DNA of 64,000 bases from Leucoraja erinacea. Taxonomy: Eukaryota. A program made the position numbers and the translations under genes. Location of the stretch: the NCBI RefSeq assembly GCF_028641065.1, contig NC_073411.1, positions 3,410,001-3,474,000 on the forward strand, read 5' to 3'. Position 1 is the stretch's first letter; every line of letters begins with the position of its first letter. Shown here in pieces: positions 22,263-46,423 of the stretch. The notes under the pieces are model-generated. The model was given only the letters and a program-made list of their open reading frames with translations. It was not told the origin of the DNA and did no database searches.

Positions 22263-23071
22263 TCCGGAGAAAACCTACGCGGTCACATGGAGAATGTACA
22301 AACTCCACTCAGACAGCACCCGTGGTCAGGATTGAACCCGGGTTTCCGGAGCTGTGAGACAGCAACTCTCCCGCTGCACCCCTGTGCTGCCCTTCTTCAG
22401 ATTTGTCCCAGTGTAGTTTTGCTTATTTTTAAAATTCCCTTGATTGTGATTGAATCTATTCTGGATAATATTGCCGAACTCTACTCATCTCGAGTAATAA
22501 CTTGGTGGTATATAATAGGATATCGCCCCACCTCTTAATTTTTGATCTGCTTTATCTTTAGTCCACCATTTTGGTTGAAGTTATCCTACAAATCTTAGCA
22601 GGGTGGTGGTGAGTGTATGGACGGAGCTGCCAGAGGAGGTAGTTGAGGCAGGTACTATCACAACATTTAAAAGACATTTGGAGAAGGTATATGGATGGGA
22701 AAAGTTTAGAGGGATATGGGCAGGTGGGACTACGGTAGATGGGGCATCCTGGTCAACATGGACAGGTTGAGCCGAAGGGCCTATTTCTGTGCAGTGTGAC
22801 TATGACTTTAACATAACTGATTGATGTTAGGATGGCCGCAAAAGCCATGCTTTTGTTGTTTTCCACAAACTTTATTCCTAATTTCTGTCCTCACCTCCCT
22901 GCCCCCTTTCTTGAGCTGAATTAGTGTAGGTGAAACCTAGTTTAATCATAACCTTCACTCCAAACACCATCTTTCTATTTCTCAATACTTATATTCACCT
23001 CCATAACATTACTGACTGCCATATCTATTCCTGTGCAGCAAGGAATCTTATCTGTGCTTTTGTTATCTTTA

Positions 23072-23358
23072 TGGACCTGTCCCACTTACGCGACCTTTTC
23101 GGAGACTACCGGCACCTGTCATAGGTCGTTGCAGGTGGCCGAGAATTTTCAACATGGAAAGACGCTACGACTCTTTGGGCGACTGAGGAGACGACTCACG
23201 ACTACTGGCGACATGTCGCGGGGTGAAGCCTGTATGGTCGTGAGTAGTCGCCCAAAGAATCGTAACCTGTTCTGGTCGCCGCTGGATTTTCAACATGTTG
23301 AAACCTATGACGGGGTGCCGGCAGTCGCCAAAAAAATCGCGTAAGTGGGACAGGCCCA
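23072..23358. mobile_element. PIF/Harbinger-like MITE (copies at ~34449-34750 and ~50036-50329)
   Basis: TIR (t)gg(a/g)cctgtcccacttacgcga; TTA/TAA flanks. Confidence 0.75.
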
Positions 23359-23892
23359 TAAGTCTTGATAATTTTCACTTACCTGTCCAGTCTTAACATC
23401 CTAATCAAGCTCCAAACTGTTTAAAACATGCCGGTCAAAATTACAACCTTGCTGAGCATCACTGGTGACCTGCACCTTCCTCTGATCTCTCAAAGCATTT
23501 AAGAGTAAAAGTCGCATCACCTCAGCAACTTTCTGCAACTATGTCCCCCCTGATTCTGCACTCAATTTGTGCCTCACTTTTAGTAACGGTGTCAAACCCT
23601 GAAAAACCTCTTGATTTTAATGTTTTGTGTATGCTTTTCCCCCCCAACTATCTTCATGTTAAGATTTGTTGAAGAAGATTTGAAGGAATGGGTTGCAAAG
23701 CAAAGTTAATAATGAAAGTCTTGTAGAATTATTAACACAGCTTAAGAAGTATTGTTGCTGAATCCCGTTCACCCAAACAGCCAGATTCTTAATGAAAGTT
23801 ATCAACAAGTCAGATATTTCTCATGGTGACAAACACCCGAGAGGAGAGAGAATCTGACACGCTTTTACCTTAACATTTTGCGATTATTTCAG

Positions 23893-41889: not shown

Positions 41890-41976
41890 AATATATATTT
41901 GCCAGCTACCACAGAAGAAGAAATCTTTGCACATTTCGGATTGGAGTACATTCCACCACAGGAGAGGAATGCTTGA
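41890..41976 (+). CDS. POLM: Duplicated POLM exon 11, copy B (intact)
   Basis: Same peptide as copy A; one synonymous TTT>TTC change. Confidence 0.7.
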   Translation, partial: NIYLPATTEEEIFAHFGLEYIPPQERNA

Positions 41977-44900
41977 TCAGCTGAGTTCACACTGTAGAAA
42001 CACGCAGAGCACCTGAATGAAAGGCCTTGGACAAAGATATTTATTGCACTGTTATCATCACTTTAAACTGGGTAAAAGCTGGACATTCACCCATCTCTGT
42101 CTGAATGTGTGTCAGTTGTTGAATGGGATCCCCCTCACTATCAAATCTCTGGAGTCGACTCCAACTCAAAGAACACACAATCCAAGTTTGCATTGAGAAA
42201 GAACTCCAGATGCTGGATAAAATCGAAGGTAGGCACAAAATGCTGGGGTAGCTCAGCGGGTGAGGCAGACCCGAAACGTCACCCATTCCTTCTCTCCATA
42301 GATGCTGCCTCACCCGCTGAGTTTCCCCAGCATATTGTGTCTACCTTTGCATTGTGAGATTAATGCACTGACAGAGCTACTGTAAATTTGTGATCATGTC
42401 TTCCTCATCCACACATAAAATACCCCAGGGTGCCATGGTAAGGAAAAATCTTCCCAAGATAGTGGCCTTGTAAACTTTTCTAACATAAAGGGGAAAATAA
42501 AATTTAAAAAAAAAATCTACTCATCTATCTCAATTGATTTTGTGATACTTTACATGCTGCATTTCCCACATTGCAATAGACAATAGGTGCAGGAGTAGGC
42601 CATTCGGCCCTTCGAGCCAGCATCGCCATTCAATGTGATCATCCCCAATCAGTACCCCGTTCCTGCCTTCTCCCCAGCTTGACCACACTTCAGAGGTCAT
42701 TAATTTACTCCAAAGCGGTTGGGGATATCGAGATTATGAAAGGAGACGAGTCATGGCCGTGAAACTAGTAGTTGACAGAAATCACCACTCATAGACTGGA
42801 GAGAAATCATCCTTGATCACAACCTGCAATAGTTTTGGTTTAAGAAAGAACTGCAGATGCTGCTTTTAATCGATGGTAGACACAAAATGAGTGACGTTTC
42901 GGGTAAAGAGGTCTGAAGAAGGGTCTCGACCCGAAATGTCACCCATTCTTTCTCCAGAGATGCTGCCTGTCCCACTGAGTTACTCCAGCATTTTGTGTCT
43001 ACCTATAGTTTTGGTGTAGTTTAGTTTATTTTAGAGATACAGCATGGAAACAGGCCCTTCGGCCCACTGGGTTTGCACCGACCAGCGATCCCCGCACATT
43101 AACACTGTCCTATACACACGAGGGACAAATTTACATTCATACCAAGCCAATTAACCTACAAACCTGTACGTTTTTGGAGTGTGGGAAGAAACCGAATATC
43201 TCGGAGAAAGACCACGCAGGTCACAGGGAGAACGTACAAACTCCATACAGACAGCACCCGTAGTCAGGATCGAACACGGGTCTCCGGCGCTGTGAGGCAG
43301 CAACTCTACCTCTGCGGCACCGTGTTGCCCAAAAAGGTTTTCCTTTAAAACCATCCAGATAGTTTGAAATATTTAGTTGGCTGTTCAGAGAGCTCATTAA
43401 ATGTTTAGTTAGTGGTTTTTAATATGATTAAGTGGAACCTGTCTGAAGAAGAGTCTTGACCCGAAACATCACCCATTCCTTCTCTTCAGAGATGCTGCCT
43501 GTCCCGCTGAGTTACTCCAACATTTTGTGTCTACCTTCGATTTAAACCAGCATCTGCAGTTCTTTCCGACACATTAAGTAGAATCATGGCTCTTTGTGGG
43601 GGTGGGAGATTGCAACCTTCACGTGGTCCGCCCTGTTTCGACGAATACAATCAACCCGGTGTGCACAATCAAATAAGATCAAATAGAACAAGTTGTCCTA
43701 CAACTTTAGGCTGTGCACGCTGTACGCAAGAAGAAGAAGATGTTTCTTTGTGGTGATACAAAACTGCAGATGCTGGAATCTGGAGTAAAAAACAAACTGC
43801 TGAACATGTGTGGAGCAAAAGGACGGTGGATACTTTGCCTCCATAGATGCTGCTTGACCTGCTCAGTTCCTCAGATAGACACAAAATGCTGGAGAAACTC
43901 ATGGGCAGTGGAGCAACAGTAGAGTCCGGAGACCCAGGTTCGATCCTGACTAGGGGTGCTGTCTGTATGGAGTTTGTACGTTCTCCCCGTGACCTGCGTG
44001 GGTTTTCTCCGAGATCTTCATTTTCCTCCCACACTGCAAGACGTGCAGGCTTGGTATAGGTGTAAATTGTCCCTCGTGTGTGTAGAATTGTGTTAATGTG
44101 CGGGGATCGCTGGTCAGTGCGGACTCGGTGGAACGGAGGGCTTGTTTCCGCGCTGTATCTCTAAACTAAAGTAAACTCAGCGGGACAGACGGCATCGCTG
44201 GACAGAAGGAATACGTGACGTTTCGGGTCGAGACCCTTCTTCAGACTGAGAGTCAGGGGAGAGGGAAACAAGTTATAGACGGTGAACAAATGAATGTAAA
44301 ATATGCAAACAAGTTACGATGATCAAGAAAACAGGCCATTGTTGTGTGGGTCGGTGAAAATGAGTTGCAGACAATGAAACTCGCCAGGACGACAGTGAAA
44401 CTAGTACACTGACGAGGGTGGGGGAGGGATGGGGAACGAGGGGATTCAAAGGTTACTTGAAGTTAGAGAAATCGATATTCATACCGCTGGGTTGTAAGCA
44501 GGCCACGTGAAACATGAGGTGCCTTTCCTCCAATTTAGCCGCACTCTTGACAATTGTTTTGTGAACGAAATTGCAGTGCCGTTGTTGGCCACTCGAGGGC
44601 AGCTGTTGGCCATGAGCAGAGAGGACAATAGGATCACACTGCACAATCTCAACACGATATGTTGGAGGAGGGGAAAACATAGAAAACAGGTCCAGGAGTA
44701 GGCCATTCAGCCCTTCTATCCAGCACCGCCATTCAATCTAAAATCAGTACCCCATTCCTGCTTTCTCCCCATATCCCTTGATTCCGTTAGTCCTGAGAGC
44801 TAAATAAAGTGAGAGATGAGCAGAAGGAGAAGGCCACAGACGGCCAAGAAGTCATTGGGTATTTTTCATGTTCACAAAGTGTAGGAGCTGAATTAGGCCA

Positions 44901-46423
44901 TTGGGCCCATCAAGTCTACTCTGCCATTTAATCATGGTCGATCTACATTTCCCTCTCAGCCCCATTCTCCAGCTTTCTCCCCATAAAGTGGAGATTGACA
45001 AGATTCGTGGTTAATAAGGATGTCAAACATTACAGGGAGATGGCAGGAGAATGGGGTTCAGAGGGAAAGATAGATCAGTCATGCTTGAAATGGTGGAGTA
45101 AACTCAATGGACCGAATTCTGCTCTTATGACATGAGGAGGGGAAAGGAACAGATTGATCGGGGCTGTGGGGAAAAATGTGTGTGGGCTGGGGGCGGAGAT
45201 TAGGGTTGCCAACTGTCCCGTATTAGCCGGGACATCCCGTATATTGGGCTAAATTGGTTTGTCCCATATGGGACTGCCCTTGTACCATATTTGACAGCTA
45301 CTACTCAGGTCGAGGGGACTGTCGGGCGGAGCGCCACGACTGACCCCGCCTCACCTGTCCCGACGTAGTGCAGCCCATGGAGTGCAGCAGCAGCACCTCG
45401 CCTGTGGCCCCGTCGGTGGGCAGCCTGGTCCGACCTTCAGACCTTCGCTTACCGCCGACACCACCACCCCTCCTTCTCATGGCCGATCATTGGTTCATGA
45501 GTTGGATGGGGCGCCGGACTTTGAGCGCGACGTCACACGGCCCGGGCCAAAATGCTTCAGCTGGCCCGCCGGCTGGTCTTTGTGTGCAGTCCAGCACCCG
45601 ACCCAACTCATCATTCACCCAGCCACGGCCGAGTCGGTCAACGAATTGCCGTTGTGAATTTGTCCCTTATTTTAACATTTTGTCCCTTATTTGGGACTGA
45701 GAAGGTTGGCAACCCTAATGGAGAATGATTAGTAGGCGGGGAGGGAGTGGTTCACTTGAGATTGGAGAAATCAATGTTCATACCGTTTGGTTGTTAGCTA
45801 TCCAAGCGGAATATGAGATGCTGTTTCGCCAGTTTGTGTATGGCTTCAGTCTCACAATGGAGGAAGCTGGGACGGAAACATCAGGAGTGGGAAGGGGAGT
45901 TAAAGTGGTTGCCAACCAGGGATCCAGCAGACAGCAGAAAACAGGTGTTTTAACCCCCTCCCCCTCCACCCCACCCTCTCATTCCAACCCCCTAACTTGG
46001 TGACCGCACCTTTTTCCCAGCACCCGATTCATTCTCTTTCCTTCTCTCCCCCCCCCCCCCCCTCTCTCTCATGTCCCACCACTCACTACAAGTCTCCCAT
46101 TCTTCCTTACACCCCAATTTCCCTTTCCATCCATATATCCCTTTCTCCAGCTTTATAATTCATTTTCCTTTATCTCTTTATTTTCCTTTATCCTCACTTT
46201 ATCTGACACCCTTTTGTCTCCTTTTCACCTGCAACGTTGTCACGCTCTCCACACATCTGCTAGTCAATCCACCCTCACCTGTATCCACCTATCACTCGCC
46301 AGGTTGTGCCTGACCCGCTGAAGGTTACTCCTGATGATGGGTTACTCCCTTTCTTCACTCTGTTTGCACTTTATCAGTATAATTATTCATTGTGTGTGTG
46401 TGTATATTTATGCAATGGGATAT

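Follow-up and report, generated by a model that had tools for sequence, protein, structure and literature searches.

A 64,000-nt stretch of the Leucoraja erinacea genome (NC_073411.1, positions 3,410,001 to 3,474,000; the window) contains a DNA polymerase gene whose exons 9-11 are found again further downstream. Does this second set belong to the animal's genome or only to its assembly, and does the gene make use of it?

The gene at the locus is POLM

Sequence comparisons identify the gene as POLM, the ortholog of Pol mu and not of TdT. The best hits in a protein search were ray and shark POLM; hits 2-22 were chondrichthyan proteins named Pol mu with 57-86% identity, and shark TdT showed 49%. 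When a single exon alone was compared with PDB sequences, TdT scored above human Pol mu. A second multi-exon TdT-like locus in the genome (on C15, 40-56% identity) is probably DNTT. The gene in the window encodes the complete family X domain set (BRCT, 8-kDa, fingers, palm and thumb) and three catalytic aspartates, in GHDVD and RVD; those described for Pol mu are Asp330, Asp332 and Asp418 (PMC7508851). Its domain set and these catalytic residues resemble vertebrate POLM, but Loop2 is longer by about 30 residues, a lysine stands at the position of Arg387 in human Pol mu, and the thumb loop is SSH in place of NSH.

All exons, units and copies described here lie on the + strand. Exon 8 (20862..20964) is present in single copy outside the duplication and carries GHDVD with the first two catalytic aspartates. 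It is followed by exon 9A (23893..24222), which encodes Loop1, a Loop2 insert with Gly/Thr/Val, the third aspartate in RVD, and WTGS; by exon 10A (25229..25312), which encodes the thumb with its SSH mini-loop; and by the coding part of exon 11A (30046..30132), which contains the TGA. Three overlapping AATAAA hexamers at 30652..30667 (+ strand) form a candidate poly(A) signal. The first coding exon of a downstream Nudc_N-domain gene, probably NUDCD3 by synteny, lies at 47098..47295 in its copy before an assembly gap.

Exons 9-11 are duplicated head to tail

POLM exons 9-11 are duplicated side by side in the L. erinacea genome, and the arrangement is real, not misjoined. Unit A (22674..34034) extends from the 3' part of intron 8 to 3.9 kb beyond the stop codon and is continuous with exons 1-8. 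Unit B (34051..45893) is a promoterless second copy that begins 3.4 kb beyond the AATAAA of A and lacks promoter exons. It contains exon 9B (35291..35620), with Asp/Ala/Ile in Loop2, exon 10B (37177..37260), identical to 10A, and the coding part of exon 11B (41890..41976), which keeps the TGA, has one synonymous change and is followed by a single remaining AATAAA at 42496. The A-to-B offsets are 11,398 nt for exon 9, 11,948 nt for exon 10 and 11,844 nt for exon 11. A repeat insertion of about 549 nt in intron 9 (36079..36625), flanked by a 4-nt duplication and presumably of CR1/L2 type, is present in B and in a further copy, C, but not in A. The AG/GT splice sites are intact in both units, introns 8-10 are all in phase 0, and no disabling change was found in B. 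The coordinates and offsets thus bear out the earlier note, which had described a repeat about 11.4-11.9 kb downstream with intact splice sites, frames, stop and AATAAA, in phase-0 introns and with the DxD exon outside the cassette (HDVD sits in exon 8). Any duplication of exons 9-11 would be phase-compatible, which makes this property uninformative on use.

The units are joined by a filler of 16 nt (34035..34050) that matches neither parental sequence, and the parental breakpoints share no microhomology. The filler pattern occurs once in the genome (G000). A short-read contig of sample X2 spans 33944-34080 without a single difference, including the whole filler and an A-only letter at 33979, at a depth of 17.3; its B side comprises only 30 nt of repeat sequence, 1 nt short of the bridging rule when counted from the right end of the filler. 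The X2 contigs derive from an independent short-read technology and from one sample, which is not necessarily the assembled animal. Since the junction is reproduced without difference in an independent contig, the A/B join is not a misjoin, which contradicts the misassembly that the earlier note had allowed for should no reads cross 34035-34050. Nor are A and B separated by an assembly gap or by sequence lacking support, as would mark a false duplication. No junction-spanning piece was present among the 32 pieces listed for runs X1, X3 and X5 (753,483 more exist), which is not evidence of absence.

Transcripts and the possible use of unit B

RefSeq gives unit B a gene model of its own ('DNA nucleotidylexotransferase-like', 158 aa, XP_055518029.1), and each of the three POLM isoforms that include exon 9 in full is A-type. 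The earlier note had offered a choice between an alternative 3' module and a silent copy-number variant. In the former, read-through past the poly(A) signal of A would allow 8>9B, 9A>10B, 10A>11B or 10A>9B splicing and yield a variant or repeated-palm Pol mu. B does hold phase-compatible intact splice sites, reading frames, a stop codon and one AATAAA, and alternative splicing already affects exon 9 in RefSeq, where isoform X4 is modelled with an internal donor and isoform X5 skips the exon. However, the isoleucine of B, its only private residue, occurs in none of the seven spliced POLM proteins listed in a Logan protein cluster, each of which has a single VRVDL, and RefSeq gives B no isoform. 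These seven come from the 15 of 17 cluster members listed, their species is not stated, and Logan contigs drop minor variants; the RNA runs are shallow and their samples are not proven carriers of B. Since exon 10 is the same in both units and exon 11 has only a synonymous change, 9A>10B and 10A>11B proteins would equal those of A; copy-specific divergence is lacking, two of the three differing residues segregating in the normal gene; and the duplication allele appears heterozygous. Use as a module is thus unlikely, and the silent variant is the part of the choice that stood.

Among the 15 of 920 joints listed, all repeat-derived, there was no 10>9 back-splice; no RNA run was listed as matching 33000-37300, which is evidence for neither side. 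None of the seven named cluster members was a named fragment gene from another skate, and copy C likewise lacks the duplication. A literature search for a POLM duplication in skates or other elasmobranchs, POLM splice variants and Pol mu in cartilaginous fish, with most subscription journals outside its scope, returned nothing on this locus.

Most A-B differences are alleles of the working gene

The coding parts of A and B differ at 6 of 501 nt. Three differences are non-synonymous, all within the Loop2-equivalent insert, and three are synonymous, as the earlier note had observed. Over the whole alignment A and B differ at 184 of 10,409 positions (1.8%), with 216 differences for A-C and 220 for B-C. 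Published heterozygosity of the species is 1.56-1.6% (PMC10115646), which puts the A-B divergence at about the allelic level. At the three Loop2 positions the seven spliced proteins read GAV (two), DAV (two), DTV (two) and GTV (one), so that all four Gly/Asp by Thr/Ala combinations occur in ordinary spliced transcripts.

The RNA runs agree with this picture at the sites listed (40 of 104 rows; the B-private sites 24118 and 24213 fall outside these, and exon 11 and the 3' UTR outside coverage). Run X15 has GAT, GCC and GTT, and run X16, of whose three differing letters two are listed, has GAT with ACC; in run X24, at 2-5 reads per site, GAG is seen in 5/5 reads and GGT and ACC in 2/2. Two of the codons proposed as diagnostic of B accordingly lost that status: GCC is shared with copy C and with runs X3 and X5, and GAT, like GAG, adjoins A-type letters in transcripts of other samples. 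Of the three residues, only the isoleucine remained private to B; the candidate B-private letters are ATT at 35516, ACA at 35611, TTC at 41937 and a UTR change at 42504-42508. Because the A-B divergence approximates heterozygosity and normal transcripts (exons 8-9-10-11) segregate for Asp and Ala, the loop-only pattern likely goes back to alleles of the working gene; the hint of selection on B drawn from three loop-only changes was dropped. Human Pol mu from which Loop2 has been deleted is, according to PMC7508851, biochemically equivalent to the wild type.

The same variants could be read in the opposite direction, with B silent yet common and old, donating Loop2 variants (GAT, GAG) to the working gene by gene conversion or unequal crossover. 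GAG at 35371 and GAT at 35478, which no other copy in the assembly and neither of runs X3 and X5 contains, do occur singly in expressed alleles, and B has 25 private changes in its first 1.5 kb against 6 for A. Ordinary allelic recombination explains this pattern equally, however, and Asp without Ile is impossible by simple crossover out of the B slot. A runs test for conversion tracts gave p=0.0004 on raw substitutions, but after clustered substitutions were merged no tract structure was left (125 runs observed, 123 expected, p=0.65). We consider such donation quite unlikely.

Copy C is likely the unduplicated haplotype

The earlier note counted two cassettes. The A/B pair stands, but the window holds three copies, the third (C) having been overlooked. 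An assembly gap of 100 N (48063..48162) separates two overlapping contig ends, and C (48163..62940) starts behind it at the homolog of position 21211 and runs through single exons 9-11 into the right flank of B, without the tandem junction. The part corresponding to the duplicated unit is 49608-61439, so that C combines the left flank of A with the right flank of B. Exon 9C (50862-51188) is frameshifted and close to the error-rich contig end; exons 10C and 11C lie at 52744-52827 and 57434-57520, and a second Nudc_N exon at 62225..62422. In the first 1.4 kb of C, 5-9% of positions appear substituted and gap events number 16-17 per kb; of 25 short indels in the first kb, 24 are C-only; frameshifts affect exon 9C only, and the accuracy of both contig ends decays toward the gap. 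A gap between duplicates and elevated sequence error are marks of false duplication. C nevertheless represents true sequence: differences of X2 at 22351-22642 are C letters in five of five cases, and the X2 contigs hold A-only, B-only and C letters. C likely represents the haplotype without the duplication, kept in the assembly as a false copy.

Contig depths in X2 were 17.3 at the junction, 18.6 for a contig with A letters, 25.4 at exon 8, 24.6 at the A-left/C-left sequence, and 35.4, 35.5 and 33.7 at exons 9, 10 and 11. A heterozygous model predicts about 27 and 36-38, and an all-homozygous model about 13-14 for exon 8. The depths fit a heterozygous gain, with contig depth being a weak measure that gives no copy number; four contigs in the triplicated part reach only 23-30, and contig paths are mosaics, one contig of depth 15.9 exactly matching none of A, B and C. 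A haploid share for C also fits, within the same single sample and contig depth rather than per-base depth. A junction at about one-copy depth (17.3 against 25 and 35, by this weak measure), together with C as a junction-free homolog, points to a heterozygous tandem duplication.

Alternatively, all three copies could lie on one chromosome, C being a longer segmental duplication with the Nudc_N exon inside it and its junction hidden in the gap. That C is a real third sequence and that A, B and C are about equidistant would agree with this. Against it, the contig of exon 8, which lies outside C, equals the A-left/C-left contig in depth (25.4 vs 24.6) and has about 1.5 times the depth of the junction, and both contig ends lose accuracy toward the gap; we regard three linked copies as very unlikely. 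It is highly improbable that A and B are an assembly chimera of two haplotypes, for although the locus is hard to assemble (an adjacent gap and a false copy) and the A-B divergence equals allelic divergence, the junction is present in a short-read contig at roughly one-copy depth, a diploid with two single-copy alleles cannot supply three distinct sequences, and a 16-nt novel filler would be unlike the product of overlap-based joining.

Origin and consequences

The preferred reading, which we hold to be probable, is that the head-to-tail copy B of POLM exons 9-11 is real, likely on one homolog only and likely silent, and that C is likely the other homolog kept by mistake. Most of what sets B apart is ordinary variation of the normal gene, and for that reason B is likely unused. 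The duplication may have arisen by break repair with end-joining, leaving a polymerase-theta-like or NHEJ filler; the pathway is a guess, because the best nearby templates for the filler reach only 6-7 nt. Unequal crossover between repeats was rejected as the origin, as the parental breakpoints share no homology. A and B, about 1.8% apart, would have derived from, or since exchanged with, different alleles. Normal transcripts would splice 8-9A-10A-11A and be cleaved at the signal of A, with B reachable only through rare read-through; an 8>9B product would carry one Val-to-Ile change relative to common alleles, in a dispensable loop. It is decidedly unlikely that in carriers read-through into B yields in-frame Pol mu mRNAs, including 10A>9B with two Loop1-palm-thumb segments, and that B also donates Loop2 variants, as a segregating first step to a new 3' module of a V(D)J/NHEJ polymerase; if B were expressed in carriers, they would show in nature how an antigen-receptor repair polymerase begins to use a duplicated 3' cassette.

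The locus matters mainly for annotation. XP_055518029.1 is a fragment of POLM without a promoter and not a paralog of TdT. Assembly error likely accounts for exon 9C with its frameshifts and for the repeated Nudc_N exon. In a species with 1.6% heterozygosity, codons that seem diagnostic of a duplicate in one assembly can be ordinary alleles.

Comparison with known systems

One known general class comprises alternative terminal exons and duplicated 3' cassettes among which splicing and polyadenylation select. B shares with it the compatible phase, an own stop codon and a poly(A) signal, but differs in having no transcript evidence, in apparently not being fixed and in showing no copy-specific functional divergence. 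The tandem duplications described for polymerase theta end-joining in C. elegans (PMC7368036) are likewise head-to-tail, of kilobase scale, with a junction insert and without long homology, whereas the skate filler has no nearby template beyond 6-7 nt. C resembles the heterotype false duplications at contig overlaps described in PMC9516828 in being gap-separated, error-rich and in a heterozygous region, and, like them, it yields false gene parts, namely exon 9 with its frameshifts and an additional Nudc_N exon. A and B resemble the allele-specific (heterozygous) partial-gene tandem duplication described by Ko et al., with which they share location on the same contig, absence of a gap and a junction at about one-copy depth; the skate case differs from that class in covering the 3' coding exons of POLM and in having copies that diverge at the allelic level rather than being identical.

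Tandem repetition of POLM exons 9-11

The gene is identified by its sequence as POLM: a protein search gave Pol mu of rays and sharks as the best homologs, named RefSeq isoforms labelled little skate match the window exon by exon, and a genome search found a separate, more distant locus on another contig. Self-alignment revealed that unit A (22674-34034), which is continuous with exons 1-8, is repeated as unit B (34051-45893). As the earlier note had described, exons 9, 10 and 11 of each unit retain intact AG/GT sites and are bounded at phase 0, and both units keep the stop codon and the AATAAA 3' of it; B thus has the sequence features of an alternative 3' cassette. 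All three copies (30017-30046, 41861-41890 and 57405-57434) have a local doubling of the exon 11 acceptor, with two TTTCAG/AATA motifs 23 nt apart. Use of the upstream acceptor would shift the frame.

Six of 501 coding bases distinguish A from B. Three of these changes are synonymous, and three replace amino acids (Gly/Asp, Thr/Ala and Val/Ile). The replacements all lie between 'CFSIFKL' and 'WKAVRVD', upholding their reported confinement to a loop insert. This insert aligns with human Loop2, and human Pol mu from which Loop2 is deleted matches the wild type biochemically according to passages of PMC7508851. In RefSeq, B appears as a protein of its own, 158 aa long and named 'nucleotidylexotransferase-like'; isoforms X4 (an internal donor within exon 9) and X5 (which skips exon 9) preserve the reading frame and lose the third catalytic Asp. 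At 20934 in exon 8, all four aligned runs have T vs A in the window, a synonymous Ile codon; the A is either a private variant or an assembly error.

The end of A is followed by a 16-nt filler (34035-34050) and then the start of B; the two parental breakpoints show no homology to each other. The junction sequence occurs once in the assembly. A 137-nt contig from X2, a short-read run of one sample, spans 33944-34080 with 0 differences at a depth of 17.3 and bears an A-only letter. With only 30 nt on the B side, within a repeat, this contig proves the junction sequence, not the whole tandem order. Letters specific to A, to B and to C, the third copy, are all present in X2 contigs; occurring in one sample, they represent three real sequences, which in a diploid require a duplication.

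A third copy behind an assembly gap

The two-copy picture of the window had to be abandoned, since the genome search found exon 9 three times, all inside the window; a search of the flanks (60 kb upstream, 80 kb downstream) found no others. C (48163..62940) comes after a gap of 100 N (48063-48162). The contig before the gap stops within intron 1 of the downstream Nudc_N gene, which we take to be NUDCD3, and the contig after it begins at the position homologous to 21211, inside POLM intron 8. C has one exon 9-11 unit, no tandem junction, and then directly B's right flank and the Nudc_N exon again. The two copies of this first coding exon (47098-47295 and 62225-62422) are probably due only to contig overlap, and gene models around them may be falsely split or doubled. 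A young repeat of ~430 nt, inserted at 46424-46855 just 5' of the Nudc_N gene, distinguishes the pre-gap haplotype from C, which lacks it. At its start C has apparent substitutions at 5-9% and 16-17 gap events per kb; the pre-gap contig ends in sequence with ~25% mismatch, and exon 9C is frameshifted. Two signs of heterotype false duplication described in passages of PMC9516828, a gap separating the copies and an excess of errors, were found here, and by this analogy C behaves like a false haplotype duplication.

X2 depths, which are contig depths rather than copy numbers and come from mosaic contig paths in a single sample, possibly the assembled animal, were compared with a model of one-copy depth ~17 and divergence 1.6-2%. 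If all three copies were homozygous, a depth of 13-14 would be expected at exon 8, where the contig, outside C, had 25.4. A heterozygous gain predicts ~27 at exon 8 and 36-38 at exons 9-11, for which the contigs had 35.4, 35.5 and 33.7, respectively; a contig from the part common to A-left and C-left had 24.6. The fit, a weak measure, favours an arrangement in which one homolog carries A and B and the other carries C. The triplicated part also gave four X2 contigs at depth 23-30, and one low-depth contig matched no assembled copy exactly.

Alleles of the working gene

Over 10,409 gap-free columns, substitution rates were 1.77% (A-B), 2.08% (A-C) and 2.11% (B-C). A 549-nt repeat insertion is common to B and C and missing from A; repeats at this locus presumably belong to CR1/L2-like and Penelope-like families. 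The rates are close to the species heterozygosity of 1.56-1.6% stated in an excerpt of PMC10115646.

The codons proposed as diagnostic of B mostly proved not to be. In the POLM protein cluster (15 of 17 members covered), the seven spliced Logan proteins listed, species not stated, carried GAV (two), DAV (two), DTV (two) and GTV (one) at the three Loop2 sites, covering all four combinations of Gly/Asp with Thr/Ala; none of these seven had B's Ile or a repeated exon. RNA runs from three further samples, labelled with the same species as X2 (aligned upstream of exon 11, depth 2-5 reads, contigs dropping minor forms), were likewise mixed: GAT together with GCC and GTT in X15, GAT with ACC in an X16 contig in which exons 9 and 10 are spliced together, and in X24 GAG in 5/5 reads and GGT and ACC in 2/2. 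The codons credited to B are therefore mostly ordinary alleles of the working gene, found alongside A-type letters. That the differences are confined to the loop is probably due to selection acting on this gene before copying. Loop2 (23995-24135) is ~30 residues longer than in mammals, with a similar length across sharks and rays, and is highly polymorphic in skate transcripts (Leu/Trp, Leu/His, Gly/Asp, Thr/Ala).

Exon 9 (23893-24222) encodes the motif DHFEKCF, which places Lys at the human Arg387 position, as in TdT. Lys is also present in 10/10 other aligned shark and ray Pol mu rows, and Arg in caecilian and mammal rows. Since human R387K has up to 100-fold higher terminal transferase activity, in passages of PMC4081086, Pol mu of cartilaginous fish may by analogy be naturally more TdT-like, a feature that may outrank the duplication in interest. 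In exon 10 (25229-25312), the thumb mini-loop is SSH in skates and rays; some sharks share NSH with human Pol mu, and the shark TdT row has NH.

Origin and possible use of unit B

A break in intron 8 and another 3.9 kb past the stop would have been joined head to tail, and the duplicated allele would segregate alongside unduplicated chromosomes. Without promoter exons and behind A's poly(A) signal, B would be reachable by read-through only. Splices 9A>10B and 10A>11B would give a protein identical to A's, and 8>9B would change one residue relative to common alleles (Val to Ile in Loop2). Only the hypothetical 10A>9B would give a new product, and it found no support in the Logan proteins, RNA runs or assembly data examined. 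As an alternative 3' module, B has the sequence features and fails the test for copy-specific divergence, and its expression and fixation are at best putative; of the two readings in the earlier note, a silent CNV is the better supported. Titles in the literature on POLM splice variants, POLM duplication in skate or elasmobranchs, and cartilaginous-fish Pol mu included no paper on this locus.

The junction with its filler resembles those of the end-joining duplications described in sections of PMC7368036, and joining may have occurred by end-joining with filler synthesis; as nearby templates span only 6-7 nt, the repair pathway is putative. B as a whole is likened to an allele-specific tandem duplication of part of a gene.
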